The notes beneath the pieces were generated by a model. It was not told where the DNA came from. It ran no database searches and was given only the letters and a program-made list of their open reading frames with translations. This document shows, piece by piece, positions 2,729 through 44,606 of a stretch of 64,000 bases of DNA; position 1 is the first letter of the stretch, and each line of letters starts with the position of its first letter. The stretch covers positions 7,711-71,710 of the forward strand of contig DAIEHI010000167.1 of NCBI GenBank assembly GCA_027355725.1, in the 5' to 3' direction. Position numbers and translations under genes: made by a program. The DNA is from Acidimicrobiaceae bacterium. Its GTDB lineage: Bacteria; Actinomycetota; Acidimicrobiia; Acidimicrobiales; RAAP-2.

Positions 2729-3741
2729 GGGGTCACGCCGCTCAGGGGCAAGCCCATCGTCTCGTCACGACCCGTCGCCACGTTGAAGGCCTGAATTGCT
2801 TGTCCGGCGGCACCCTTGACGAGGTTGTCGAGCGAACTCATCGCTACGAGCCAACCCGTTCTTTCGTCGACTCGCGCGCTCACGAAGCAGAGATTGCTCC
2901 CAACGGGGTCCTTCAGCGTCGGAGGCTCATCGATGACCACGACGAAGGGGTCGTCTTCGTAGGTCGAACGCAGCAGCGCAAGGGCGTCGTCTGTCGTGAA
3001 GCCGGAAGCGCTCACACGCGCATAGCCCGTAATCAGCATGCCTCGACTGACCGGCACCAGGTGCGGTGTGAAGAGCACCTCGGCACCGATCTCCTCTTGA
3101 ATCTCGATTGTGTGCCGATGACGCAAGAGGCCATAGGCCTCGGCGTTACCAGAGAGTCGAGCGAAATGTAGTCGGTCACTCGTGGCTCGCCCGGCGCCCG
3201 AGACCCCACTCAGCGCATTCACGATGAGCCCGGCGGCTTCCACGACACCATGGTCGAGGAAGGGGCCGAGTGCCAGTGACGTCGACGTTGGGTAGCAACC
3301 AGGCACCGCAATCAACTGCGCGCCCACCAACTCTTCACGGTGACGTTCGACGAGCCCGTATACGGAGGCCTTTAGAAGGTGTGCCGCTCGGTGAGTTTCG
3401 CCGTACCACTCTTGGTAGTGCGACGGATCCTTCAGGCGAAAATCCGCGCCTAAATCAACGACTCGAGTACCCCGTTCGAGCAGCGAAGGCACGAGGGACT
3501 GACTGTGTCCATGGGGCAAGGCTATGAAGGCCACGTCGAGAGCAACGTCACTCGCCTCGGAGGCTTTTGCGTACATGAGATCTGGGTACAACCCCGCGAG
3601 CGCAGGCGCGTGCTCGCTGACGCGCTTACCCGCATTGCTGTCCCCGGTAGCGAGCACCACCTCAAGGTCGGGGTGTCCCGCACTGAGACGCAACACTTCG
3701 AGACCCGCGTACCCGGTTGCTCCGAAGATGCCAACGTTCAT
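2725..3741 (-). CDS. argC: N-acetyl-gamma-glutamyl-phosphate reductase
   Basis: GATGYAG, AVPGCYPT, SGVSGAGR, DNLVKGAAGQA. Confidence 0.96.
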   Translation of the reverse strand: MNVGIFGATGYAGLEVLRLSAGHPDLEVVLATGDSNAGKRVSEHAPALAGLYPDLMYAKASEASDVALDVAFIALPHGHSQSLVPSLLERGTRVVDLGADFRLKDPSHYQEWYGETHRAAHLLKASVYGLVERHREELVGAQLIAVPGCYPTSTSLALGPFLDHGVVEAAGLIVNALSGVSGAGRATSDRLHFARLSGNAEAYGLLRHRHTIEIQEEIGAEVLFTPHLVPVSRGMLITGYARVSASGFTTDDALALLRSTYEDDPFVVVIDEPPTLKDPVGSNLCFVSARVDERTGWLVAMSSLDNLVKGAAGQAIQAFNVATGRDETMGLPLSGVTP

Positions 3742-3778
3742 AGTGACATTTTATGCACAGCAAGGCACAAAAATGCAA
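3742..3778 (-). promoter_or_regulatory. Tandem ARG boxes overlapping the leaderless argC -10 element
   Basis: Minus strand TTGCATTTTTGTGCCT..GTGCATAAAATGTCACT; TGCA half-sites 20 bp apart; TAAAAT 6 nt before the argC ATG. Confidence 0.7.
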
Positions 3779-3806
3779 GTCGAGCGCAGCGAAGTATGCT
3801 CATCCC

Positions 3807-4715
3807 ATGACGCGGCGCGGATGGGTCTTGTTTATCGCAATGGCCGTGATTTGGGGTATTCCCTATTTGCTCATTCGAGTGGCGGTGCGCCAGGTGGATC
3901 CCGGGTTCTTGGTGCTTGGTCGTACCGGACCCACCGCGCTACTCATGCTCACTCTCGTGGTCAGTCGTCGTCAACTCGCACTGTTGCGCTCGAATTTCAA
4001 GTGGATTGTCCTCTTTGGCGTCGTCGAGTTCGGTGTGCCGTGGTTCTTCATGTCAACCGCGGAGAAGCACATCACCAGTTCGCTCACCAGTCTCTTGATC
4101 TGTACGGTACCCCTGTTGTCGGTGGCGATTCAACGTCTGCGTCGCACCAAAGAGCACATCAGCACTCGCCGATACGCCGGATTGGGCATTGGCGCGCTCG
4201 GTGTCGCACTGCTCGTGGGCTTGGACCTGCGCGGCGGCTCGATCGTCTGGCTTTCCATGATGTTGGTGGTCTGCGTGGGCTACACAATCGGTCCGATGAT
4301 TCTGGCGACGAAACTCTCCCACGTACCTGGCCCAGTCATCGTCGCCGGCGCAACCAGCTTCGTAGCGCTTGGATGGTTGCCGTGGTCAATCGCGCATTGG
4401 CCCGCGCACGCGTCCACTGAGACGATCTCGAGCATCGCGGTCCTGTCCATTGTCTGCACCGCTGGCGCCTTTCTCATCTTCTTCGAACTCGTGAAGGAGG
4501 TCGGCTCAACAAAATCCGTGGTGGTCACCTACATCAATACCGCCCTGGCGGTAGCGCTCGGTGTCATGGGACTGAACGAGCCGCTCACCGTCGGCATCAT
4601 CATCGGGTTCCCGCTCGTGCTCATCGGGTCCATCTTCGCCACCAGTGGCGCAACGAAGAAGGCTCCTCTACGTGGCGAAGTGAGCAGCGACACGCACCTC
4701 GTCGTCAACGACTAA
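3807..4715 (+). CDS. EamA/DMT family transporter
   Basis: About 10 TM helices; IWGIPYL, TYINTALAVALG..LNEP; ATG 3807 preceded by TATGCT-N6. Confidence 0.88.
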   Translation: MTRRGWVLFIAMAVIWGIPYLLIRVAVRQVDPGFLVLGRTGPTALLMLTLVVSRRQLALLRSNFKWIVLFGVVEFGVPWFFMSTAEKHITSSLTSLLICTVPLLSVAIQRLRRTKEHISTRRYAGLGIGALGVALLVGLDLRGGSIVWLSMMLVVCVGYTIGPMILATKLSHVPGPVIVAGATSFVALGWLPWSIAHWPAHASTETISSIAVLSIVCTAGAFLIFFELVKEVGSTKSVVVTYINTALAVALGVMGLNEPLTVGIIIGFPLVLIGSIFATSGATKKAPLRGEVSSDTHLVVND

Positions 4716-5372
4716 CCAGAGCGACTCGTGAGCGAGCGCCAGCCTCACATCGTTCCCGCCTTCCACCGGTCCGTGGTGGATCACCTCGACTGAAGCCACC
4801 GGTCCCTGGACCACTTCGGTCACGGCCTGCCAGACTGCAGCGTTATTGACGTGACCAACGACGTCCAGATCAGCCCGGCGAAGCGGCCACGCCAGCCAGC
4901 GTGCGTCAGTAGGCGGAGATGTGACGTGTACGCGCCCCGAGACTTTGCGGCCCATCATCGCTTCGCCGTAAACGTCGAAGAACGAACGGCGCACGCGAAC
5001 AGGATGACCCCCCAGGTCAATGGGTACCCACAAGGCAACGCTCTGAACCGACAACTCGTTGTTCACAAAGAGATCCGTACGACGTTCCGCCCATGCGGCA
5101 CCAACGCCACCACACCACGTCGTCAGCGCAACCGTGTCCTTTAGAACGGGCCAGCGCCCACTCGCGACAACTCTGAGTGCCGTGCGACGGACGACCCACG
5201 TATCGTCCGAAACGATTCCAGTATCGTCCCAATCATCGGTTGCCACATCCTGGAGATATCGCGCGATACCGTCGAGACGCAGGTGTCCATCGGGACCGGT
5301 GTCGCTGAGTCGGACCGGAACTTCGAGGGTGAAGGTGCGCCCGCGCTCTGGGGTGGGAACGAACTCGATCAC
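4668..5372 (-). CDS. Acyl-ACP thioesterase domain protein
   Basis: VRLSD...RLDGIARYLQDVA, DLDVVGHVNNA hot-dog motif. Confidence 0.8.
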   Translation of the reverse strand: MIEFVPTPERGRTFTLEVPVRLSDTGPDGHLRLDGIARYLQDVATDDWDDTGIVSDDTWVVRRTALRVVASGRWPVLKDTVALTTWCGGVGAAWAERRTDLFVNNELSVQSVALWVPIDLGGHPVRVRRSFFDVYGEAMMGRKVSGRVHVTSPPTDARWLAWPLRRADLDVVGHVNNAAVWQAVTEVVQGPVASVEVIHHGPVEGGNDVRLALAHESLWLVVDDEVRVAAHFAT

Positions 5373-5401
5373 CTTCTCAAGTTACCCGAGCCTCGAAGAA
5401 C

Positions 5402-7876
5402 TCAGCGAAGCACCGCACCCAATTCGCGGGCGCGCCCTATGAGTCGCTCGCGTTCGCTGCCAACTTCGGATTCACTGAGGGTTCGATCCTTTGAGCTGAG
5501 GCGGATTGAATAGGCCAGACTCCTCGTGCCCTCTGGCAGACTCTCATCCTCATACACATCAAAGAGATCAACACTCTCCACGAGCTCACTCTCAGAGATG
5601 AGCTCGTGTGCGAGGTCGCTTGCGTGCACAGAACGCGGGGTCACGAAGGCGAGATCAAAGGCTGCACTTGGGAACCGACTAGGAACCTCAGCGAGTTCGC
5701 TCCTTCGCAGTGCTCGCGTCGGATCCGCGAGCGCGTCAAAGTCAAGATCAATGACACCGAGGCGCCGACCACGAAGCGATGGTGCCAGCGACTCAATGAG
5801 CGAAGTATCCACTTCACCGACGTGGCCAATCACTGCGCCCGATTCACGGTCTACGAGGGCGCCGGTACGCGTCGGATGCAGGCCCGCTGGACACTCCATC
5901 GAACTCCTCACGACCACGTCTTTAAGCCCCAGACGCCGCGAGAGCACCGTCCAAAAGCCAACGGCGACACGCGCATCATCGTCGAGGCGTCCAAAGACGA
6001 CCGTTACTCTCTCTTTCTCGTGGGGCAATTCAAGTGTCACGCCGCCACCCTCACCACCTTTGGTGACGCGAGCATGAGTGCTCGAGAGCGGGTGAGTGAA
6101 CACCGTGCCGATCTCACCAAGCACCACGTCGCCCACACCGCGCTCGATGTTTCGAATCCAGACCTTGACGAGCCCTGTGATCATCGTCGCCCTGAGCACC
6201 GATTCTTCAGAAGCCAGCGGATTGGTGATACGCACTCGCTCCTCGTTCGAATGCACGAGATCGAAGTCGCCGTCACTGATCAGCGTGGGAGTCCACGCCT
6301 CAATCACTCCGAGGTCGACGATGACGTCGCGCACGCGCCGTCGCAGTCTCTGGCGAGCGTTGAGCCCACCCGGCTCGGGCCACGTGGGTGTGTGCCGTGG
6401 AAGACGGCCGTAGCCGTAGAGACGTGCAACCTCCTCGATCACGTCAGCGCGCCCTGGGCTGCCACTCCTCACGTCGAGTCGCGCACTGGGTGGAGTGACC
6501 ACAAGGCCCGTCGTGTCACTTTGAACGCTAAAACCGAGCCCCTCGAGTATCGACGTCACCTCGGCACGCGAGAGTGAGACCCCTAGAGTCCTAGCGATGT
6601 CGCCGTCTCGCAGGTGTACTTGCGGCAACGTCGGCACCGTACCGCGCACGTCCAACGAATTGGCCAGCCACTCCAAGTCCTCGACGCTCTCTCGCAGGAT
6701 TTCAACGAATCGTGCCACCGCTCGAAGACCGAGCTCAGGATCGACGCCGCGTTCGAATCGATTCGACGCTTCACTGCGTAGGCCGTGCCGCTTGGAACTG
6801 CGCGCAATCGTCATCGGATCGAAGTACGCGGCTTCGAGTAAGACGTCTGTCGTAGCGGCGCTGATCTCGCTCGAAGCTCCACCCATGATGCCTGCTAGCC
6901 CGAGAACGCGATCATCACCGTCGACTATGACGCAGTCCTCGCCGGTGTCGCCAAGACCGCGGCCAGCCATCGCAAGCGGACGTTGAATGCCGTCGAGGGT
7001 TTCAAGGACTTCCCCACTTCGCGCTCGTCGCACTCGAATCGTGTGCTGGGCAACATGCTGAGCGTCGTAGGGATGGGTTGGCTGTCCAAGTTCGAGCATC
7101 ACGTAGTTCGACGCGTCAACCACATTCGATATAGGGCGCATGCCCGCTGACTGGAGTCGCTGCGCTATCCAAGCGGGCGATGGACCGACCTTGACGTTTC
7201 GAAGCACTGATATCGTCAAACGCCCGCAAAGGTCAGGCGCATCAATGTGTGCTGAAGCAAACGTGGCACTCTCGACCGTGCTCGTGGCCGTGGCTAGCGC
7301 CGGCGCACGTAGCGTGCGTCCCAGCCTCGTCGCCAGATCGCGCGCAACCCCTTCAACGGACCACGCGTCGGGGCGATTGCCCTCTACGGATATATCAAAG
7401 ACCACATCGGATGTGAGTGAAAGGGCGTCGAGGAGTCCTTCGCCGATCTTTGGCGTGGTGAGTTCGTCAAGGATCATGAGGCCCTGATGATCCTCGTCGA
7501 GGCCCAACTCGCGCGACGAGCACAGCATCCCGTGCGAAGTCACGCCTCGCATCTTTCGCTCGCCGATCGCAAAGCCACCCGGCAAGACCGCCCCAACGGG
7601 TGCCAAGGGTACGAAGTTTCCAACCTCAAAGTTCGTTGCTCCACACACGATCTCGAGTGGGCCTTGACCAGCGTCCACGATCACCAATCGCACGCGATCG
7701 GCACCTTCGATGGCACGAATCTCATCGACTCGCGCTACCACGACATCTTCGAGGCCCTCGCCCACGTATTCAACGCCCTCGACCACGAGTCCTAAATCAT
7801 CAAGGATCGAGCGAAGATCATCCACGGATTCGTCGAGATCGACAAACTCTCGCAACCAACTAAGAGAGATCTTCAT
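5402..7876 (-). CDS. pheT: Phenylalanine--tRNA ligase beta subunit
   Basis: MKISLSWLREFV, IVCGATN, NRPDAWS, EASNRFERGVDP, C-terminal FDX-ACB domain. Confidence 0.97.
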   Translation of the reverse strand: MKISLSWLREFVDLDESVDDLRSILDDLGLVVEGVEYVGEGLEDVVVARVDEIRAIEGADRVRLVIVDAGQGPLEIVCGATNFEVGNFVPLAPVGAVLPGGFAIGERKMRGVTSHGMLCSSRELGLDEDHQGLMILDELTTPKIGEGLLDALSLTSDVVFDISVEGNRPDAWSVEGVARDLATRLGRTLRAPALATATSTVESATFASAHIDAPDLCGRLTISVLRNVKVGPSPAWIAQRLQSAGMRPISNVVDASNYVMLELGQPTHPYDAQHVAQHTIRVRRARSGEVLETLDGIQRPLAMAGRGLGDTGEDCVIVDGDDRVLGLAGIMGGASSEISAATTDVLLEAAYFDPMTIARSSKRHGLRSEASNRFERGVDPELGLRAVARFVEILRESVEDLEWLANSLDVRGTVPTLPQVHLRDGDIARTLGVSLSRAEVTSILEGLGFSVQSDTTGLVVTPPSARLDVRSGSPGRADVIEEVARLYGYGRLPRHTPTWPEPGGLNARQRLRRRVRDVIVDLGVIEAWTPTLISDGDFDLVHSNEERVRITNPLASEESVLRATMITGLVKVWIRNIERGVGDVVLGEIGTVFTHPLSSTHARVTKGGEGGGVTLELPHEKERVTVVFGRLDDDARVAVGFWTVLSRRLGLKDVVVRSSMECPAGLHPTRTGALVDRESGAVIGHVGEVDTSLIESLAPSLRGRRLGVIDLDFDALADPTRALRRSELAEVPSRFPSAAFDLAFVTPRSVHASDLAHELISESELVESVDLFDVYEDESLPEGTRSLAYSIRLSSKDRTLSESEVGSERERLIGRARELGAVLR

Positions 7877-8946
7877 GAGAATTGCTCCAAGAAACGAACG
7901 TCGTTCTCGGTGAGCGCCCTCATGTCAGCGATCTGATGACGCATCTGAGCGCAACGATCGATGCCAAAGCCGAAGGCGAAGCCGCTCCACACCTCGCCGT
8001 CGATACCGACCGCACTCAGCACCGCGGGATCGAGAACGCCGCACCCGCCAAGCTCAATCCATCCAGTCTGTGAACACGTCCTACAGCCTTCGCCGCGACA
8101 AATCGTGCACGTGATCTCGAATTCGGCTGATGGCTCGGTAAAAGGAAAGTACGCCGGCCTCAAGCGCGACGAGATATCGGGTCCAAAGTAGGCACGTGTG
8201 AATGTCTCTATGACGCCCGCGAGGTCGGCGAACGTGATCCCTCGATCAACGACCAGTCCTTCGATCTGATGGAACGTGGCCAAGTGGCGCGCGTCGGGGG
8301 TATCGCGTCGAAAGCAGCGCCCAGGCATCACCGAATGGATCGGCAATGTCGAGGATGACACCGCATTTTCCATCAGGTGAATCTGTGTCGGCGAAGTATG
8401 GGTTCGAAGCACCACCGTCTCCGGCTCGCCCAGCTCGACGTAGAAGGTGTCCCACATCCCTCGCGCGGGATGTGCGGGCGGAATATTGAGTGCCTCGAAG
8501 TTGTACCAGTCACTCTCGACCTCAGGTCCGTCCGACACCGTGAATCCCATCGAGACAAAGACGTCCTCGAGCTCGCGTTGGGTGGAGGCAACCAGGCTCG
8601 CGTGGCCCGTCGACGCGGGCCAACGTATTGATGCGACCACGACGTCACCAAGGTCAATGCGGTCTTGCTCTAGTTGGGCGCTGCGCGCATTCGCCGAGAG
8701 CACCTCTCGACGTTTGGCGAAGGCGTCGTCAACCAGACGTCGCGCCTCTTGGAGTCGGGCGCCAGCGTCACGGCGTGCATCGGGATCAAGCGAACCCAAC
8801 GACTTCTGTAGCGACGAGAGCGCCGAGCGCTTGCCAATGATGGAGGCTTCGGCGTCGACGAGTGCGGCGAGAGAGTCGAAGGACTCAATTGTCGCGAGCA
8901 GTCTGGTGACTTCCTGACTCAGATTCTCAAGCGGTGAGGTGCTCAT
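7873..8946 (-). CDS. pheS: Phenylalanine--tRNA ligase alpha subunit
   Basis: HPARGMWDTFY, LRTHTSP, FHQIEGL, YFPFTEPSAE, GFAFGFG. Confidence 0.97.
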   Translation of the reverse strand: MSTSPLENLSQEVTRLLATIESFDSLAALVDAEASIIGKRSALSSLQKSLGSLDPDARRDAGARLQEARRLVDDAFAKRREVLSANARSAQLEQDRIDLGDVVVASIRWPASTGHASLVASTQRELEDVFVSMGFTVSDGPEVESDWYNFEALNIPPAHPARGMWDTFYVELGEPETVVLRTHTSPTQIHLMENAVSSSTLPIHSVMPGRCFRRDTPDARHLATFHQIEGLVVDRGITFADLAGVIETFTRAYFGPDISSRLRPAYFPFTEPSAEFEITCTICRGEGCRTCSQTGWIELGGCGVLDPAVLSAVGIDGEVWSGFAFGFGIDRCAQMRHQIADMRALTENDVRFLEQFS

Positions 8947-9761
8947 AACTCCTCAAGGCTACGAGGTACGCGATGCTCGGTGGCGTCTTGTCGCTGGTAG
9001 AGGGCCTCGAAGCATACGAGTGAAGCTGCCACACCGGCGTTGAGCGATTCGCTGCGCCCCGTCATAGGAATGGTGATACTGGCGTCGCACATGGCCACGG
9101 CATGCTCATCGAGGCCAGCAGCCTCATTGCCAATGAGAACGACGCTGGGGTGGTTGAGATCGACATGTCGAAAGCTCTCTTCGCCATTGATCAGCGTTGC
9201 GAAGATCGTGGCACCTTGGGTGCGAAAGTGATCGATTGTTTCTTCGAGGGTTGCAACCACCACTGGAACGTGAAAGATCGAACCCGCTGTTGCACGCAAG
9301 GTCTTTGGATTGAAGGGATCGACCGACTGTCCCGTCAAGACAACGCAACTCACGCCCGCGGCGTCCGCAGAGCGAATGATCGTGCCAACGTTGCCCGGGT
9401 CGCGAACATCGTGCAACACGAGTACGAGGCCCTGAGCGACCAATGACGACAATTCGTGTCGCACCATGCGGACCGAGGCAAGGATCGGCTGAGGGGACTG
9501 CGCGTCGGCGATTTTCGCGATGACGCCCTCACCGAGGCGAAAGATTCTCACGCCACGTCGTTCACCTCGCTGCAGGGTGTCAACAATCGACGCTGACTCT
9601 GCTCGTTCATCAACGTAGATTGCTTCGAACTCATGTGCGACGTCAAGCGCCGCATTGATCAGGTCCGGCCCCTCGAGAACGCACACTCCCTCGCTCCAGC
9701 GCAGCGAACGCTTCTGGACCAGGCGCCGGAGTCGACGCACTCGCTGGTGTGACGATCCCAA
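8943..9761 (-). CDS. TrmH/SpoU family RNA methyltransferase
   Basis: DPGNVGTIIRSADAAG, IGNEAAGL, ESLNAGVA. Confidence 0.9.
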   Translation of the reverse strand: MGSSHQRVRRLRRLVQKRSLRWSEGVCVLEGPDLINAALDVAHEFEAIYVDERAESASIVDTLQRGERRGVRIFRLGEGVIAKIADAQSPQPILASVRMVRHELSSLVAQGLVLVLHDVRDPGNVGTIIRSADAAGVSCVVLTGQSVDPFNPKTLRATAGSIFHVPVVVATLEETIDHFRTQGATIFATLINGEESFRHVDLNHPSVVLIGNEAAGLDEHAVAMCDASITIPMTGRSESLNAGVAASLVCFEALYQRQDATEHRVPRSLEEL

Positions 9762-9779
9762 CGCCTCGATCAGAGATTC

Positions 9780-10139
9780 CTACTTAGTCAGTGCCGCGCT
9801 GGCTTGGGCGACGATGGCGGCAAATGCGGCGCTGTCGTTGACGGCCAGGTCTGCGAGCATACGGCGGTCCACTTCAATGCCCGCGGCGTTCAGCCCAGCG
9901 ATGAAGCGACTGTAGCTAAGACCGTGGGCCCGGGTACCAGCGTTGATGCGCTGAATCCAAAGTCGACGCATGTCACCTTTGCGCGCTCGTCGGTCACGAA
10001 AGGCGTACACGCCCGCGTGCTGGACGGCTTGATTGGCCGCTCGAAAAGTACGGCTGCGATCTCCGTAGTAGCCCTTGGCCTCTTCGAGAATCGCCTTATG
10101 GTGCTTCTTTGCGTTTACTGCTCTCTTGACTCGTGCCAT
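9780..10139 (-). CDS. rplT: 50S ribosomal protein L20
   Basis: MARVKRAV...LWIQRINA...YSRFIAGL. Confidence 0.98.
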
Positions 10140-10166
10140 TTCAGTTCCTCTTCTCTAACTCGTTCT

Positions 10167-10361
10167 CTACAGACCCATCAGCTTCTTGATGTTCTTCTCG
10201 ATACCGGGGGCGATGTCCGTCTCTCGTCCGAGACGACGCGTGCGCACCGACGACTTCTTTTCCATGATGTGGCCACGGAACGCCTTGCGTCGGCGCAGTT
10301 TGCCGCTACCGGTGATCTTGATGCGCTTCTTTGCGCCACTGTCTGTCTTCATCTTTGGCAT
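10167..10361 (-). CDS. rpmI: 50S ribosomal protein L35
   Basis: MPKMKT.SGAKKR.KITGSGK. Confidence 0.97.
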   Translation of the reverse strand: MPKMKTDSGAKKRIKITGSGKLRRRKAFRGHIMEKKSSVRTRRLGRETDIAPGIEKNIKKLMGL

Positions 10362-37064: not shown

Positions 37065-37892
37065 TCACTGAGGCAAGTTACGCTCCGAGGTGCCCAAAGC
37101 ACGCTCACGACGCAACATAGATCCCAATTCAGCGTTCGGGTCCTCCTCACTCTGAAGCCAATGGATCAGATTCCAAAAGACCACGGGCAAGAACGTCGCC
37201 GCCGACGACACCCACATCAGCACCGCTGTCAGCTGCTGGTCAGCCCAGAGTGAGAGGCCAGTTCCCACGTGATGAAACGATCCATACCAAGGGTCGTGCG
37301 ACATCGCATTCAGATAGGCAACGATCCACACCGTCCACATTGAAATCGCGGTCATAGCGATTCGAAATGGCCTCGTAATGCCAGGACTCACGGGCGGTGA
37401 TTCAACGAGGTCGAGCCACAGCAGACTCCCCACGGCGACCAGGCTCAAAGACTCCGGCACCAGCATCCATGCGTGACGGTTCGTGTAATCAACAATTGGT
37501 GCCACTCGCCAAAAAATAGCGACGACCAGGTAACACACGAGCAACGTCACCGCACCAATATGGCTGGTAACCCCTCGCCTCGCACTGGCGAAGCGGTCCA
37601 TCACTCGAAACTCAACGGGCGAAACGATCTTGCCGTCCGGGTCAACTTCAAAATCTTCGCGCGCCGCCAGGCCCAAGAAACGCCATGGCGCACTCACCAC
37701 CAACAACGCAGGAATAACGAATGCAAAAAGCGAAAACTGAGTGGCCTGCATGAATTCAAAATGATGTGCCCAACCAGAAATCGGAGGGATAACCAGCAGA
37801 ATCCAACAACCGACGCCGAAAATTCCTAGGGCGTTCCTTCGTCGACGCACTTCGTGCGTCGACGAACGGCGCTCAGCTGTACCCGCCGTCAC
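37065..37892 (-). CDS. Divergent caa3-CtaG paralog lacking the conserved His residues
   Basis: Same TM layout and W.Y...DQQL...MW end as the 33834 gene; GTG 37892 overlaps the preceding stop. Confidence 0.75.
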   Translation of the reverse strand: MTAGTAERRSSTHEVRRRRNALGIFGVGCWILLVIPPISGWAHHFEFMQATQFSLFAFVIPALLVVSAPWRFLGLAAREDFEVDPDGKIVSPVEFRVMDRFASARRGVTSHIGAVTLLVCYLVVAIFWRVAPIVDYTNRHAWMLVPESLSLVAVGSLLWLDLVESPPVSPGITRPFRIAMTAISMWTVWIVAYLNAMSHDPWYGSFHHVGTGLSLWADQQLTAVLMWVSSAATFLPVVFWNLIHWLQSEEDPNAELGSMLRRERALGTSERNLPQ

Positions 37893-38005
37893 TCTGATGG
37901 GTGACGCTGGAAAAAGCCCCACAACAGAACACCGAATAGAACACCCAGCAGGAGCACCATCGTCAGCACCTGCGAACCAATGTAAAGATCGACTGCTTGC
38001 ATCAT
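37889..38005 (-). CDS. 38-aa single-TM peptide (candidate small oxidase subunit)
   Basis: GGAGG RBS; MMQAVDLYIGSQVLTMVLLLGVLFGVLLWGFFQRHPSE; GTGA overlap with next gene. Confidence 0.7.
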   Translation of the reverse strand: MMQAVDLYIGSQVLTMVLLLGVLFGVLLWGFFQRHPSE

Positions 38006-38069
38006 CACCTCCATCCTCAACCCTAAAGTACAAACACCAGGGACGACAAGCGCCCCATGACACGAACAA

Positions 38070-38726
38070 CTACAAGATGTAGAACAATGCCAAGAACAGG
38101 GCACCACTCAGTGCGACGAAACCCCAGAAATATGTCATCGAGGCGACGTTTGCACGAAATAGTCGTGCCGTGGCAACAGACGAGAGCTCGGGATTATCTT
38201 TGCCAAGCTCCTTGCGCATCCGCATAGAGCGAGCCACTGTGGTCTCAAGCCAGTAGACACCCACCACCAGTGTCGCGATGTTGATGACTACCCAACCGAT
38301 GAACGTCGATGAGTAACCACTGGCACCTGGGTAGAACGGCAACGTCGTCGTCTCCCAGATTTGCAGGAACAGCGCTACGAGCGATGTCAGCACACCGGTC
38401 CACACTGCAACTTGCCAGTCGAGAACTACGCCCTTTCGCAAGCGCCACTGCCCATAGATCGCAAGCACGGCCGTCAGCGCTTCGAGCGCAAAGATCGACC
38501 ATCCGAACGCCGTGGGAGCGGTCATGTTGTGGGGCCGCCACTGCAGACCACTATTTGCAGTGCGCAGGTAGAAGTATGCGAACGCGAGTGCCGCGAGCAA
38601 GAAGGTGTACATGCCAATGAACAATCGTCCACCTGACCACACCGATCCGACCTTGGCGCGCAACTCGTACTCAATCTCCTCGGGCGTCTCTGTGTAGCCC
38701 TTGGACTTGTTGTACATATCAGTCAT
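38070..38726 (-). CDS. Heme-copper oxidase subunit III-like
   Basis: LFI...AYFYLR...W.P, FLQIWE, Y.STF; about 5 TM; follows subunit I. Confidence 0.8.
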   Translation of the reverse strand: MTDMYNKSKGYTETPEEIEYELRAKVGSVWSGGRLFIGMYTFLLAALAFAYFYLRTANSGLQWRPHNMTAPTAFGWSIFALEALTAVLAIYGQWRLRKGVVLDWQVAVWTGVLTSLVALFLQIWETTTLPFYPGASGYSSTFIGWVVINIATLVVGVYWLETTVARSMRMRKELGKDNPELSSVATARLFRANVASMTYFWGFVALSGALFLALFYIL

Positions 38727-38746
38727 AGTAAATTCTCCACTTACTA

Positions 38747-40711
38747 CTAGGCCGGGCTACTGCCGGATGTTGTTGAAACGACGGGTGGTGCACTGGTGCC
38801 CAAGTCCGCAACCGGCGGGGCGCCAACTTCGCTGTAGTGATACGGGTCACTCATAACCACTGGAATTCGCTCGAAGTTGTACTCAGGAATCGGGCTCGCC
38901 GTCTGCCATTCAAGTCCGAGCGAGTCCCACGGGTTCGCTGGCGCCTTCACGGGCTTGATGTACATCGAGTACATCAAGTTCGCGAAGAACAACAGGAATG
39001 AAGCACCGAGCAGGAATGCGCTGATCGACGAGAAGTCGTTCAAGCCCTGCAGGTTCTTCGCGTAGGTGAACACACGTCGCGGCTGTCCGAGCAGACCAAT
39101 GATGAACATCGGGAAGAACGTGAGGTTGAAGAAGATGAACATGGTCCAGAAGTGCCAAAGGCCAATCTTCTTGTTCATCATGCGACCGGTCATCTTAGGC
39201 AGCCAGTAGTACAGTCCCGCCATGAACGCGAAGAGCAGTCCACCCATGATCGTGTAGTGGAAGTGCGACAGCACGAAGAACCCACCGTGCACAGTCACGT
39301 TCACCGGTACGTCTGACAAGAACACTCCCGTCACACCGCCGATGAGGAAGTTGAAGAACAACGCCATCGCAAAGAGCATGGGTATCTCAAAGCGAATCTT
39401 TGCCCTATAGAGCGTTCCCATGCCGACCAAGAAGATGAAACCCGTTGGAATGGAAATCAATTCCGTGGTGAGCATGAACAAAGGTCGCATGTCTGGGTTA
39501 ATGCCACTCTGGAAGAGGTGGTGCTGCCACACGAAGAACGACAGCAACGCCACGCCGATCATGCCTGAAGCTGCAACCTTGTACGCAAAGAGAGGTTTGC
39601 GGGTAAAGACCGGTAGAATTTCAGCAACGATACCGAATCCAGGCAGCGCCATGATGTACACCTCGGGGTGGCCGAAGAACCAGAACAGGTTCTCCCACAG
39701 GTACGAACTACCGCCGTGTTCTGACACGTAGAACGCCGTCTGCGCTGTCTTGTCCAAGATACCGAACAAGCCCGCTGCGAACAAAGTCGGCGTTGCCAAC
39801 GTCAAGAGAGCAGCGGTAGCGAGGATCGACCACACGAAGATCGGAACTCGGCTCCAAGTCATGCCCGGAGCCCTGTTGTTGATGATGGTCACCGCAATGT
39901 TGAAGCCTGCTGCCATCATGCCCATTCCAATAACCGCGAAACCGAAGAGGTACGAGATCATTCCAGGGCCCGCTTGAGTCTGAAGCGGTGCATAGCCCGT
40001 CCAACCAGTCGGGAACCCGCCGTATGGAAGCGCTGAGAAGATAACCGCGTAACCCGCAACGAAGATCCAGAAGCTGAACGCCTCAATGCGTGGGAATGCC
40101 ATCTTTCGTGAACCGATCATCAACGGTACGAAGTAGTTGCCCATCGGACCAACGATGATTGACGTCGCCATCATCATCATGATGGTGCCGTGCTCACTGA
40201 CGATCTCGATATAGGTGCCCGGTCCGAACAGGTGTGTCGTCGGACTCAGCAGTTCTGCTCGAATGGCCATTGCGAGAAGTCCACCGGTGAACATGAACAA
40301 GAGCACACCCACTACGTACTGCAGGCCCACAACCTTGTGGTCAAGCGTGTAGCGGAAGTACTTCGACCATCCCTCGACGGTAGGCTCCTGCTTCGGCTCG
40401 CGACCGAGGAGCTTCGCGAAGGGGTAGTTCAGGGCCCCAATTCCCAACAGCCAACCAACGACTGCGAAGAGCAGTGCGAAGAAGTTGGCCGCCGAGTTCT
40501 GTCCCGAGTTCTGGACGTAGGCGTAGTTGCCAGTGATTGCGTTGCCCAGCCAGTGTCCGAAGAGGTAGCCAACGATGCCAAGGACAATCGCTGTTCCTAG
40601 GTGCTGACTCATCCAGCCTGGACGCTGTGTCCAGCCAACCCTTCCCGACTGCATGGGAGGAGTTGCGCTACTGGCCGCAACTTCTGTCGGTCGTTCGGCG
40701 CTTATAGTCAT
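38747..40711 (-). CDS. ctaD: Heme-copper oxidase subunit I (A-family-like, N-terminally extended, atypical proton channels)
   Basis: DHKVVG, HGTIM, GWTGYAPL, WFFGHPEVY, VWQHH, SHFHY, QPRR; six metal-ligand His present. Confidence 0.96.
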   Translation of the reverse strand: MTISAERPTEVAASSATPPMQSGRVGWTQRPGWMSQHLGTAIVLGIVGYLFGHWLGNAITGNYAYVQNSGQNSAANFFALLFAVVGWLLGIGALNYPFAKLLGREPKQEPTVEGWSKYFRYTLDHKVVGLQYVVGVLLFMFTGGLLAMAIRAELLSPTTHLFGPGTYIEIVSEHGTIMMMMATSIIVGPMGNYFVPLMIGSRKMAFPRIEAFSFWIFVAGYAVIFSALPYGGFPTGWTGYAPLQTQAGPGMISYLFGFAVIGMGMMAAGFNIAVTIINNRAPGMTWSRVPIFVWSILATAALLTLATPTLFAAGLFGILDKTAQTAFYVSEHGGSSYLWENLFWFFGHPEVYIMALPGFGIVAEILPVFTRKPLFAYKVAASGMIGVALLSFFVWQHHLFQSGINPDMRPLFMLTTELISIPTGFIFLVGMGTLYRAKIRFEIPMLFAMALFFNFLIGGVTGVFLSDVPVNVTVHGGFFVLSHFHYTIMGGLLFAFMAGLYYWLPKMTGRMMNKKIGLWHFWTMFIFFNLTFFPMFIIGLLGQPRRVFTYAKNLQGLNDFSSISAFLLGASFLLFFANLMYSMYIKPVKAPANPWDSLGLEWQTASPIPEYNFERIPVVMSDPYHYSEVGAPPVADLGTSAPPVVSTTSGSSPA

Positions 40712-40769
40712 CGCCCGATCTCCGTTTCTTTCATGGTCATTGTCTGATTGCTCTGTGCGTATTCGTTCA

Positions 40770-41762
40770 TCATGATGTGGGCTGCTTTGCGCCGTAGGTC
40801 TCGACCTGGCTGTAAGGAGTCACGTTGCCGTCGATGTAGTAACCACCGGCCGCACCGTTCGCGTCAGGTACGTAGGTCCAAGCGAATGGAGGCAGGTTCT
40901 TCGTGTTCGCAGCGTTCGCCGCCTCGGTCGAGGTAGCCCAGTTCTGGAAGTCACTCGGAGTGACGACCTTGCCGTAGTTGAACATCGCTCCGTGCCAGAT
41001 ACCGCAGAGCTCACTGCATCGAACTGTGAAGTTGCCCAACTGATCGGTCTTGGCGTATGCCACGTCGTTCTGCTGAGGATTGGCATCGGCCTTCACGCTC
41101 AACTGATACGCCCAGAAACTGTGGATCACGTCGAGTGAGGTCACGTTGAACGCAATTTCAGTGTTGTTGGGGATGATCAACTTGGGTGACTCGAACCCAC
41201 CGAACTGAGGGTAACGGTAGGTGAACTGCCACTGCTGTCCGATGACCTGGACCACGAGGACTTGGTTGCTGCCCGGTGTCCACGACGCAGACGACGTGAG
41301 CGCAGCTGTCTCAGCCTTGGCAGACCCAGCGGGCATCCATACCGGGTTGGGGCCTTCGCCACCACCCGAGCCCTTGCCACCAATGAGGGCAACCGTACCG
41401 AAACCTGCGAGGAACAGAACGATCACCGACGTCACAACTATCCATGACACCTGTGCCTTCAGGTTCCCGCGAGCTGCTGGACCACCAATCGGTTCCGGTA
41501 CACCTGCGCGCTTGGCGCTCCAGTTGACGATTGCGTATCCCATGTAGACCCACACACCGATGAGCACCGGAAAGGCCATCAAGAACAACACGTTGAAGTC
41601 GAACTGGTTCGCTCGTGCGGTGTCGGTCATGGTCCCTGGCGGCACGTGAGGTGCGATCCAGAACATGAACAGCAGGTCAGCGGCTACCGACAGGATGATC
41701 CAAATCGTGGCCATCCGACGAAGGTGATGTGTCTCTTTTTTCATTGAATTCTCCGTGGACAT
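40770..41762 (-). CDS. ctaC: Heme-copper oxidase subunit II with CuA site
   Basis: 2 TM, GQQWQFTYRY, DVIHSFW, CSELCGIWHGAM. Confidence 0.94.
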   Translation of the reverse strand: MSTENSMKKETHHLRRMATIWIILSVAADLLFMFWIAPHVPPGTMTDTARANQFDFNVLFLMAFPVLIGVWVYMGYAIVNWSAKRAGVPEPIGGPAARGNLKAQVSWIVVTSVIVLFLAGFGTVALIGGKGSGGGEGPNPVWMPAGSAKAETAALTSSASWTPGSNQVLVVQVIGQQWQFTYRYPQFGGFESPKLIIPNNTEIAFNVTSLDVIHSFWAYQLSVKADANPQQNDVAYAKTDQLGNFTVRCSELCGIWHGAMFNYGKVVTPSDFQNWATSTEAANAANTKNLPPFAWTYVPDANGAAGGYYIDGNVTPYSQVETYGAKQPTS

Positions 41763-41764
41763 AA

Positions 41765-42448
41765 TTAGCGAACCACCTCAAGGAATCCACCCATGTAGTT
41801 CTGGGTAGACATACCGCCACCGTTGCCGTAGAGGTAGCCCAAGCCGCATGGCACAAAGCACTGCCATCGGTAACTACCTGCGGCACCCGTGCGGAAACTG
41901 AACGTCACCGTTCGGTGAGGCTGATTGACGTGACACGGTGCGACGCCACACAGCGTCGCGTTGCCGTTCACGCCCGCCAGAGGTACGTAGACACCGAGTG
42001 ACGGGACCGCGAATGTGTGGCCAACACCATCACCGGTGTTCGAGTTGTAGTTCGAGAAACTCGTGCCGTCAAGCGTTGCCTTGCCGTTCGTGGTACCAAG
42101 CACTTGGCCAAGCTGCTGATTACGCAGTGGGCTACCACTGTCGTAGTTGTAGATGGTCATGTTGATCGTGGTATTGGCCGGAAGCTTCCACGTGGTGTCC
42201 TGCACCCACTTACCGGTTGTCGGGTCCTTCACCAGGTACGACACCCACGTTGGGTGGGGGCCGAAGCCAATCGATCCCACGGTCTGGGCCGTTATGTTCA
42301 CGGCCTGTCCCGGCGCGTGCGTCTTGGTGAAGTCCATAACACCTCCAGGTGTGCCTGGTGTCAAGAACGCCGCAACGCTCCAGACAATCAGACCAACCGC
42401 AACCAAGAAGAGCCCGAGAACCGTCGCCAGTCTCCCTCTCATTGACAT
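41765..42448 (-). CDS. Membrane-anchored cupredoxin-like protein with non-canonical ligand loop
   Basis: AAGGAG RBS; N-terminal TM; LPANTTINMTIYNYD, GHTF, GSYRWQCFVPCG...GGGM.....M. Confidence 0.8.
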   Translation of the reverse strand: MSMRGRLATVLGLFLVAVGLIVWSVAAFLTPGTPGGVMDFTKTHAPGQAVNITAQTVGSIGFGPHPTWVSYLVKDPTTGKWVQDTTWKLPANTTINMTIYNYDSGSPLRNQQLGQVLGTTNGKATLDGTSFSNYNSNTGDGVGHTFAVPSLGVYVPLAGVNGNATLCGVAPCHVNQPHRTVTFSFRTGAAGSYRWQCFVPCGLGYLYGNGGGMSTQNYMGGFLEVVR

Positions 42449-42527
42449 ACACCACTCCTTGCGATTCACTGTCCCTTAATGAACTCAGGTACGAATGTAA
42501 CGGAACGGTTCACTAAAGTTAAGGTTT

Positions 42528-42847
42528 GTGACACAGGGAACTAAGAGAATTCTTGGAATCCACCTGGGTCTGGTGCTGGCGCAGCTCATATGTGTGAGTG
42601 CATTTGCGATAGAGCTCGAGCGCGCGCTGCACGGAAACTCACTCTCGTGGGCCTACGTTTTTGAGTGGCCGATCTTCTCCGGCTACGCCATCTACATGTG
42701 GCAAAAGCTATTAAAACAAGAGCGTTTGGGAGACGACGCGAACACCGCGACACCTGATCGCGACGATGATCCGGCCCTCGATCGCTTCAACGAATTCCTT
42801 CGCCAAGTGCACGACAAAACTCCTCCGGAGCCGCCGAACGAATCCTG
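42528..42847 (+). CDS. Small 2-TM protein (SURF1-like motifs), paralog 2
   Basis: FAIELERALHGNSLSWAYVFEWP. Confidence 0.75.
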
Positions 42848-42887
42848 AAAGTCTTTTCAACTTTAAGGTCCGAGAACGTTGACAATC

Positions 42888-44606
42888 TCAGTGGACGCCC
42901 TCGAGTGAGAGGAGCGCCTTCAGTTCACTCACCGCCGACGAGGTCCCCGACGCCGAAGCGATGGGGTCATCAGGCACGATCCAGTGGGTGCGCGCCGAGG
43001 GCGTGATGATAAACATCAGGTCAGAGTGAACGCTCATCTTGTCTGTTGGTTTCATGCTGACCGACACCCCGAAATTACGCCACACAGTGCGAACCTTTGC
43101 CAGTTGGCCGGTCACGAAGTAGAAATTCCTCACATTGTCCAAGCCGTGCTGCTTCATGAAATGGCGCACATCCGCCAATGTCTCATGGTACGGATCTGCT
43201 GCTACCGCGACGATGTCCAGGTTCGCGTTGAGCGAGAGCTGTGATCGAAGTTGCGCTAGTTGGTTGGCCAGTAATGGGCAGTCTGTCCAGCAATGCGGAT
43301 CAAGGAAGGTCAAGAGCGTGACGCGACCTTTGTGTTCGCCCAATGTGAAGGGCCGACCATACTGATTGGTCAGGGTGAAGGTCTTTGCCGGGAGATCAAC
43401 GGCTGACGCTGAGCCGTTTTGGGCAAGAAAGAGCGTGTTTTCAGCGCTGGCTGACGTGGCGAGCCCCATCGAGACCGCGGCGAAGATCAACATAGATGAC
43501 GCAAAGGTGGCGACCACCGCGCTCGTGGCACTCGTCAGTTCTCGTGGCATGTATCGCTGTGTCAGAGCGGTCTCTTCTCTCGGAGCGGCACACCAGGCGA
43601 GAAGCGCCAAGGGGATGAGCGAGTTCACGTCGGTGGCGACGCCGCCAAAGATGGCGGTGTCTTCGCCAATGACCCAAAAGACCACAGCGCCAGCAATCAA
43701 GGTCCACACGGGCCAGCGCCATGCGCGACTTCGCGCCATCCATAGTCCCACTGCGCTCACCATGAGCCACAAGATCACGATGATGTTGAATCCACCGCCC
43801 ATCGTCGCTGCGATTGATCCTCCACCGCGCACGATTGCCGCCAACCAGTGCGGCTGGGCGATGGCACTCATGGAACGCGTCATCTGAGCGAGCGCGTTGG
43901 TGGGTCCACCGTGCCAGAATTCAGTCGACGGCAACGCTTGAAGAAACGCACCAATCACCAGCAGCACGCTCAGTGTCCTCAGCGTCAGACGAGAGAACAA
44001 CGCGAGGAATTGGCGTTGTTCGAGCGACAACGCAATTCCCGCAATGACGTAGAAGAAGGTTGCGCCCGGCCACCCAAAAAGAAGTGACGCCCCCGAGATG
44101 AAAACACCACCCGCACCGTTACCAACGAGCCAGATCAGTCCAGCCCAGGCAGCCGAGACGGCCCCGGCGATTCGACTGGTGCGACCGCGGGCCACCAGGA
44201 TCACCAGTCCGAGACCAATCTGAAACCACGCGACACCGACCGCGAGGGTGATTGGATGGCTGTTCCACACCGAGATGCCGTGCAACATCAGCGCGTGGAG
44301 CCACGATGGCGTCCCCACTGCTGCGGGAGCGACAACATTGTTCGCGAGCCCAAGCGGCATTGAAGGCTGGAACTGCAGGATCCCGTCAATAAGCCACAGC
44401 ACACCGAATGACCAGCGTAAGTACGTACGAGATCGCGGTTCGCTTATGTCCTCGGGCGCAAGGTTGAAGGCGAAAATCCGCCGCGTCGACATAAGGAGGG
44501 CGAGCAGAACAATCGCAATCCCCCCCACCCAAAGAATGCTGGTGACGTAGAGCGCGTGATGGAAGATTGCGATGATATTGGCCAAATCGAGGGGCCGTCG
44601 ACTCAT
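42888..44606 (-). CDS. Polytopic membrane protein fused to a C-terminal SCO domain
   Basis: About 10 TM with an internal duplication; FTLTNQYG, FLDPHCWTDCP, SVHSD. Confidence 0.85.
   Translation of the reverse strand: MSRRPLDLANIIAIFHHALYVTSILWVGGIAIVLLALLMSTRRIFAFNLAPEDISEPRSRTYLRWSFGVLWLIDGILQFQPSMPLGLANNVVAPAAVGTPSWLHALMLHGISVWNSHPITLAVGVAWFQIGLGLVILVARGRTSRIAGAVSAAWAGLIWLVGNGAGGVFISGASLLFGWPGATFFYVIAGIALSLEQRQFLALFSRLTLRTLSVLLVIGAFLQALPSTEFWHGGPTNALAQMTRSMSAIAQPHWLAAIVRGGGSIAATMGGGFNIIVILWLMVSAVGLWMARSRAWRWPVWTLIAGAVVFWVIGEDTAIFGGVATDVNSLIPLALLAWCAAPREETALTQRYMPRELTSATSAVVATFASSMLIFAAVSMGLATSASAENTLFLAQNGSASAVDLPAKTFTLTNQYGRPFTLGEHKGRVTLLTFLDPHCWTDCPLLANQLAQLRSQLSLNANLDIVAVAADPYHETLADVRHFMKQHGLDNVRNFYFVTGQLAKVRTVWRNFGVSVSMKPTDKMSVHSDLMFIITPSARTHWIVPDDPIASASGTSSAVSELKALLSLEGVH

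Follow-up and report, generated by a model that had tools for sequence, protein, structure and literature searches.

The protein encoded on the minus strand at positions 41765 to 42448 of the window (the whole 64,000-nucleotide stretch of Acidimicrobiaceae DNA that we analyzed) is, judging by its predicted structure, a cupredoxin, or copper-type protein, with a membrane anchor. Its family has no name, and we call the protein cupX. Its putative ligand set of one His, two Cys and two Met matches no described copper site. We think it somewhat more probable than its alternatives taken together, at roughly 55%, that cupX is a copper-loaded, dedicated redox partner or extra redox subunit of a divergent oxidase, and that it passes electrons to the CuA site of the subunit II (CoxB) encoded next to it. 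To our knowledge, copper electron-transfer sites form a small closed set comprising type 1, CuA and a few curiosities. If our reading is correct, cupX would add a sixth ligand recipe, invariant in at least 577 species genomes, and would provide a natural experiment on the tuning of a thiolate-bridged site by His versus Met. It would also mark a distinct oxidase type and a haem-free quinol module in the abundant Acidimicrobiales of peat, soil and mine drainage, whose respiration and iron metabolism are poorly known. Any standing beyond that of an oxidase-partner cupredoxin with undescribed ligands hinges on whether the center has two copper ions.

The open reading frame is matched by 2512 homologs of the same length, which are the members of the family in 90% clusters at E ≤ 1e-3 and which fall into 466 clusters at 50% identity; every member is annotated as hypothetical. 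An alternative, longer start exists at GTG 42469. Because the homologs begin at the ATG at 42448 (the close ones all being 225 to 229 aa long), and because a Shine-Dalgarno sequence, AAGGAG (minus strand, 42455 to 42460), lies 6 nt 5' of that ATG, we take the product to be the 227-aa protein whose coordinates, stop codon included, are given above. The 5' neighbor, a 106-aa membrane protein that is conserved at this place (42528 to 42848, plus strand), is divergently oriented, so cupX opens its operon, and its TAA stop codon is followed after only 2 nt by the ATG of coxB; the original prediction, made from the sequence alone, that this is the first gene of the operon is thus borne out. The short spacing and the strong ribosome-binding site suggest stoichiometric co-expression of cupX and coxB. 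The run continues on the minus strand with coxB itself (40770 to 41762; PF00116, 7.5e-16), whose family alignment shows a canonical CuA site (H214, C249, E251, C253, H257 and M260), then with coxA, the subunit I of a divergent A-family oxidase (38747 to 40711; PF00115, 1.2e-127), a conserved 218-aa membrane protein that has no Pfam match (38070 to 38726) and a CtaG-like assembly factor (37065 to 38069; PF09678, 1.5e-19). Assembly genes surround the operon, two SCO and two CtaG-like genes in all; one of them, a membrane domain fused to SCO1/SenC (42888 to 44606, minus strand; PF02630, 1.6e-14), is kept upstream in most loci. Of positions 38700 to 42900, two mine-drainage metatranscriptome runs that we mapped there reached only conserved parts of coxA, with identities near 90%, and no part of cupX, a result that has no bearing on transcription.

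The putative copper site is read from the motif GHTF ... W-Q-C-F-V-P-C-G ... G-N-G-G-G-M-x5-M, which is present in the translated frame as originally described and has the spacing H-x52-C-x3-C-x11-M-x5-M. All of the following codons lie on the minus strand: His144, the first candidate ligand, at 42017 to 42019; the pair C197-F-V-P-C201 at 41846 to 41860; Met213, which sits in the Gly-rich loop (G-N/F-G-G-P-M in the family) and is the candidate stand-in for a missing His, at 41810 to 41812; and Met219, the equivalent of an axial Met just before the last strand, at 41792 to 41794. H144, C197, P200, C201, M213 and M219 are invariant in 36 members of 30 to 83% identity. In the family-model alignment of 270 proteins, which holds many fragments and was therefore counted over non-gap cells, M213 is kept in 199 of 199 sequences and M219 in 196 of 196, while C197, C201 and H144 are kept in 203 of 210, 200 of 209 and 222 of 231, respectively; the rare exceptions are likely to be frameshifted gene calls. 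In other words, the conservation of H, C, C, M and M, which had been proposed as a check, is essentially complete among some 270 relatives, a pattern that on this alignment lies far beyond chance.

What sets the candidate site apart is the residue that it lacks. Between C197 and M219, neither the query nor any of the 36 diverse members has a His, and position +4 is taken by a Cys; throughout the family, the second His that CuA and type-1 sites possess is missing. An alignment by hhalign of the cupX and CoxB families reproduced the pairing that had earlier been made by eye with the adjacent CuA domain, matching H144 with H214, C197 with C249, C201 with C253 and M219 with M260, and left the CoxB ligand H257 without a partner, as expected from the earlier description of a C-terminal His lost in favor of a Gly-rich loop with two Met. 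Taken by itself this alignment is not significant (E = 0.027, probability 1.8%), so the relationship to subunit II rests on the fold. In the family profile, C-F-V-P-C-G aligns with the type-1 loop of auracyanin, C-T-V-P-G-H, and the word hybrid that was first used for this loop is therefore apt. An invariant Asp, D103, which precedes an insert of 40 residues, is the counterpart of the Asp in the COX2 block D-V-x-H-S-F; short paralogs without the insert read Y-D-x3-H-T-W. A second motif, C167-x4-C172-x5-H178 (41915 to 41950, minus strand), is confined to the core, oxidase-linked group, where its residues are kept in 190, 187 and 181 of about 212 sequences, and is absent from distant members and paralogs. 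It lies in a well-modelled loop, where it might bind a further metal or form a disulfide.

To place the protein among known folds, we built an AlphaFold2 model from a 36-sequence alignment (mean pLDDT 89, pTM 0.81). The model consists of a helix at residues 3 to 29, the predicted N-terminal membrane anchor (42362 to 42442, minus strand), a short disordered linker and a beta domain of 11 strands at residues 47 to 227 (41768 to 42310, minus strand); the least confident stretch is the ligand loop at residues 201 to 212, with a pLDDT of about 59. Cupredoxins head both of the fold searches that we ran, in agreement with the original assignment to that fold. Foldseek placed rusticyanin first (1.2e-5), followed by subunit II of ba3 and caa3 oxidases (3.6e-5 to 1.9e-4), with mitochondrial oxidase subunit II and copper nitrite reductases as further matches. 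The matches listed by VIA, at Z 8.5 to 10.6, are all copper proteins: the cupredoxin domains of nitrite reductases, nitrosocyanin, rusticyanin, CupA and the CopA metal-binding domain (these two at Z 8.7 to 9.1), a Cupredoxin_1 protein of B. anthracis and the CuA domain of N2O reductase. On the model, then, the fold is that of a cupredoxin. An identity as a Sco protein (SCO1/SenC), whose C-x3-C and His chemistry is alike, was rejected on the same grounds, the modelled fold not being that of a thioredoxin; true SCO genes adjoin cupX.

Sequence models gave little by comparison. The single cupX sequence found no match that would name it in Pfam, NCBIfam or the PDB; specifically, neither COX2 (PF00116) nor PCuAC (PF04314) matched it at E ≤ 0.1, and Cupredoxin_1 (PF13473) did not match it either. 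Among the 36 family members, three had sub-threshold matches to the COX2 model, the best at 5.7e-4, and two had sub-threshold matches to Cupredoxin_1, while the family profile matched auracyanin A (0.003) and AcoP (0.015) weakly in the PDB. Short paralogs, linked to NrfCD genes or standing alone, do match Cupredoxin_1 (3e-7), which makes cupX a distant outlier of that neighborhood.

A scan of one genome per species gave at least 577 carriers of the family. The best 80 of these are nearly all Acidimicrobiales/Acidimicrobiaceae metagenome-assembled genomes (MAGs) from palsa, bog, fen and soil, and they include an isolate, Acidiferrimicrobium sp. IK, which as a cultured carrier opens the question of cupX function to direct testing. 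In a class sample of 201 genomes, 8 carry the family. Near-identical DNA is also present in metagenomes from mine drainage. Two unusually long members were examined as natural fusions and found unconvincing: P0132 is a CtaG fragment plus cupX, and P0249 comes from a frameshifted long-read contig. A 404-aa soil-metagenome protein (L112, 1401 to 3392) has two tandem cupX-like domains, and the next gene matches Rieske proteins weakly. Literature searches on cupredoxins in Acidimicrobiia or Acidimicrobiales, and on cupredoxins together with NrfD and quinol, found no paper; both had limited coverage, so their outcome does not prove that none has been published.

The composition of the protein is as first reported, rich in Thr (26), Gly (33) and Asn (14) with only 7 acidic residues (6 Asp and 1 Glu). 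Low content of charged residues is common to the whole family, whose habitats are mostly those of peat, bog and soil MAGs and also include mine drainage; such a composition would fit an exposed protein and proves no acid-specific rationale for a Met in the place of a protonatable His, the swap first proposed. The soluble domain of cupX has a pI of 8.7, against 5.0 for that of CoxB, and a basic domain facing an acidic one agrees weakly with electron transfer to CoxB.

Gene order links cupX to an oxidase. The succession cupX, coxB, coxA, 218-aa protein and CtaG-like gene is kept at all 80 loci from the best 80 of the at least 577 carriers, and cupX-coxB-coxA is kept in all six class relatives. 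Where the operon is rearranged (COX1 ... CtaG-cupX-COX2), cupX still adjoins COX2, as it also does in distant members of 30 to 35% identity. Each of the seven best CoxB matches in the 201 class genomes comes from a cupX locus. In four relatives with complete or nearly complete genomes, COX1 and COX2 are each present twice, once as a canonical pair and once as a lower-scoring pair linked to cupX. This assigns cupX to a second, divergent oxidase of the A family, and it appears to mark this one specific oxidase type. In the assembly from which the window was taken, which is 85.6% complete, the cupX-linked oxidase is the only one found, and canonical ctaC/ctaD genes were not found. A canonical actinobacterial cluster, ctaE-qcrC(dihaem)-qcrA-qcrB, does lie on contig C101 of the same genome (locus L016, G000:C101, positions 2795 to 6758), so that a dihaem cytochrome c is encoded there.

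Several features of the linked genes are recorded here in their own right. The cupX-linked CoxB proteins (40770 to 41762 in the window) have a Gly-rich insert past membrane helix 2. They also share a conserved C-terminal extension of 55 residues (L-P-P-F-A-W-T-Y-V-P-D-A-N-G ...), absent from the most distant orthologs, at the place where caa3 oxidases bear a cytochrome c domain. A-family oxidases usually have a D-channel Asp and a K-channel Lys; at those places the translation of coxA (38747 to 40711) reads G-S-R-K-M-A-F-P-R-I-E-A and I-P-T-G-F-I, with H-P-E-V-Y kept. On a 3-kb contig (locus L017, G000:C177, 2577 to 3066), beside an IS-like transposase ORF, the 106-aa gene has a second, diverged copy (51% identity) that is joined by residues 1 to 27 of cupX (81%) and cut off by the contig end; either the operon exists twice, or assembly has broken up a strain variant. 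In a distant lineage, a divergent DsbD_TM/CcdA and thioredoxin pair precedes the cupX-COX2-COX1 operon (L021, 4332 to 5716) and could keep exported C-x3-C sites reduced.

Another line of evidence on function comes from paralogs found away from any oxidase. In genome G159, four tandem cupX paralogs lie directly 5' of genes for a four-cluster Fe-S protein and an NrfD-family membrane protein. These paralogs, which belong to a group of about 177 proteins, retain the H, the C-x2-P-C and both M; in some of them the loop is a short C-x3-C-x4-M-x5-M. Three further contexts, in MAGs of Acidimicrobiales, Candidatus Dormibacteria and Actinomycetes, likewise place one or more cupredoxins, the FeS protein and NrfD in one operon, so that the arrangement, with one to four cupredoxins, is seen in four independent genomes of two phyla (L029 (G159:C15), 5367 to 10220; L113, 8366 to 12578; L114, 9001 to 13131; L115, 8351 to 12189). 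The Fe-S proteins have RRxFL Tat signals and must therefore face the same side as the cupredoxins. These operons contain no oxidase genes, and the module has no haem subunits. An NrfC/NrfD pair is the quinol-oxidizing core of complexes such as alternative complex III, from which auracyanin, a tethered cupredoxin, receives its electrons; by its gene content, the haem-free operon is likely to encode a quinol:cupredoxin oxidoreductase related to that complex. The best available argument that this type of site transfers electrons rather than delivering copper is that the paralogs occur in operons with no oxidase to assemble. Two genomes have both the module and a true cupX. The NrfCD-cupredoxin cluster was not found in the genome that carries the window or in the complete genome G047, and for these two we can only infer the electron source. 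The membrane domain that is fused to SCO in the window also has stand-alone homologs of 33 to 50% identity in or beside NrfCD-cupredoxin operons (L029, 3256 to 4806; L114, 10580 to 11542); that is, an unnamed membrane protein family travels with both copper systems.

From these observations we infer that cupX binds copper, contacts CoxB and acts as follows. Anchored in the membrane and facing outward, the protein would hold copper through His144, Cys197, Cys201, Met213 and Met219. The C-x3-C loop would resemble that of CuA, except that a Met on a larger, Gly-rich loop would take the place of the second His, the one on the solvent side. From this site, electrons would pass singly to CuA in CoxB. 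In this organism, cupX would be reduced by the bcc complex through its dihaem QcrC; where the haem-free Tat-FeS/NrfD quinol module is present, the paralogous cupredoxins of that module may reduce it. Co-folding of CoxB residues 126 to 330 with cupX residues 36 to 227, each with its own alignment, gave a score of 0.26 (mark 0.32) and speaks neither for nor against binding. The original prediction had cupX as an electron donor in place of cytochrome c. Synteny and the paralog context make an electron-transfer role tied to subunit II likely, and that part stands; the replacement of cytochrome c lacks support, given the dihaem cytochrome c encoded in the same genome and the canonical oxidase that the complete relatives also have.

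A more far-reaching version we offer only tentatively, at well under even odds. It holds that the His-Cys2-Met2 set forms an undescribed copper center, either a CuA-type Cu2S2 core with Met for the solvent-side His or a mononuclear bis-thiolate, within a "copper wire" free of haem c that leads from quinol, or from an external donor such as Fe(II), to the divergent aa3 oxidase. This version covers Acidimicrobiia and Dormibacterota and takes in the stand-alone cupredoxin as well as the Tat-FeS/NrfD paralogs.

The main alternative is that cupX is a tethered Cu(I) carrier that loads, repairs or shields the CuA (or CuB) site of its own oxidase. Flexible Gly-rich loops with Cys and Met are also typical of copper chaperones, and cupX offers soft Cys, Met and His ligands on such a loop, a fold similar to that of the Cu(I) chaperone CupA and an operon set amid assembly genes. 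PCuAC, the copper loader of CuA elsewhere, was not found in four of the five cupX genomes, but this does not discriminate, since genomes that lack PCuAC also run a canonical oxidase. AcoP, discussed further below, is reported to preserve oxidase activity, and a chaperone-like role, protecting the oxidase rather than donating electrons, has been discussed for it (PMC10804444). Against this stand the paralogs with identical ligands in tandem arrays by an oxidase-free quinol module, which are hard to explain as chaperones of CuA, and the place of cupX as the first gene, tightly coupled to coxB, which points to subunit-like amounts. We therefore regard a carrier role as unlikely, though it deserves serious weight.

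Rusticyanin and sulfocyanin feed the oxidase in acidophilic iron oxidizers, and cupX might similarly be an entry point, reduced by Fe(II) or another extracellular donor. The first place of rusticyanin in the Foldseek list, the near-identical DNA from mine drainage and the relative in Acidiferrimicrobium sp. IK agree with this; however, the carriers are mostly MAGs from peat and soil, with physiology that is uncharacterized, and the sequence does not indicate an iron-binding surface, so we consider this reading quite improbable. Still less probable is a purely structural role without metal, in which cupX, as a degenerate copy of the domain of subunit II with its cysteines in a disulfide, would do no more than stabilize the complex: one CuA ligand is indeed lost, and copper-free COX2-like domains exist (CyoA of quinol oxidases), but decayed sites drift, whereas in cupX the five ligand positions stay unchanged at identities as low as 30% and in paralogs of another operon type, the two Met without a single exception.

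We return to the preferred reading, that of a redox partner of the oxidase, and to how such a protein compares with known copper proteins. Its closest characterized analog is AcoP of Acidithiobacillus ferrooxidans (PDB 7Z3B and related entries), which has an N-terminal anchor and a single periplasmic cupredoxin domain with a long ligand loop, interacts with an aa3-type oxidase and exchanges electrons with cytochrome c (PMC10804444, PMC4059628). The predicted architecture of cupX, one anchor and one cupredoxin domain, is the same, and its partnership with an oxidase is seen as genetic linkage. The ligands of AcoP are classical and mononuclear, H85 and C159-x6-H166-x4-M171 (PMC4059628), whereas cupX has its second Cys at +4 and no loop His, comes from another phylum and has no significant sequence relationship to AcoP.

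The CuA motif is H-x34-C-x3-C-x3-H-x2-M (PMC6189053). With CuA domains cupX shares the modelled fold, the C-x3-C, the upstream His in an (H)(T/S)F strand, the Met before the last strand, the conserved Asp before the His and a membrane anchor. It differs in the absent second His, in an inserted 11-residue Gly-rich loop with an extra invariant Met, in the 40-residue insert between Asp and His and in having one helix rather than two. An identity as a canonical CuA domain was rejected for the missing His and the unmatched COX2 model, and one as a type-1 blue copper protein for the lack of a His between C197 and M219 and the Cys at +4; the original conclusion that the site fits neither motif is upheld. 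By its putative ligands, then, cupX has the defining set of neither type 1, CuA nor AcoP.

Tethered cupredoxins that work between an NrfD-type quinol-oxidizing complex and a terminal oxidase include auracyanin, with alternative complex III in Chloroflexus, and sulfocyanin and halocyanin, with archaeal oxidases. All three are type-1 proteins, with a His where cupX has the residue just past its second Cys, and unlike those systems the FeS/NrfD module of the cupX paralogs has no haem subunits. PmoD has a CuA-like site in a cupredoxin homodimer, formed by Cys41, Met49 and His51 of two monomers (PMC6189053). Like cupX it is a membrane-tethered cupredoxin of unknown function with non-canonical CuA-type ligands in a copper-enzyme operon, but its site comes from another part of the fold, while in cupX a single chain supplies both Cys, from the classical ligand loop. 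CupA and the CopA metal-binding domain of Streptococcus pneumoniae (PDB 4F2E, 4F2F) are likewise anchored cupredoxins with Cys and Met ligands; the comparison here is one of fold and ligand types. CupA differs in facing the cytoplasm, where it serves an efflux pump as a Cu(I) chaperone. What appears to be new in cupX is a cupredoxin oxidase partner with an undescribed ligand set, in a family for which Pfam and NCBIfam have no model. By analogy, cupX would work most like AcoP, auracyanin or sulfocyanin, while in its predicted structure it looks most like the domain of subunit II.
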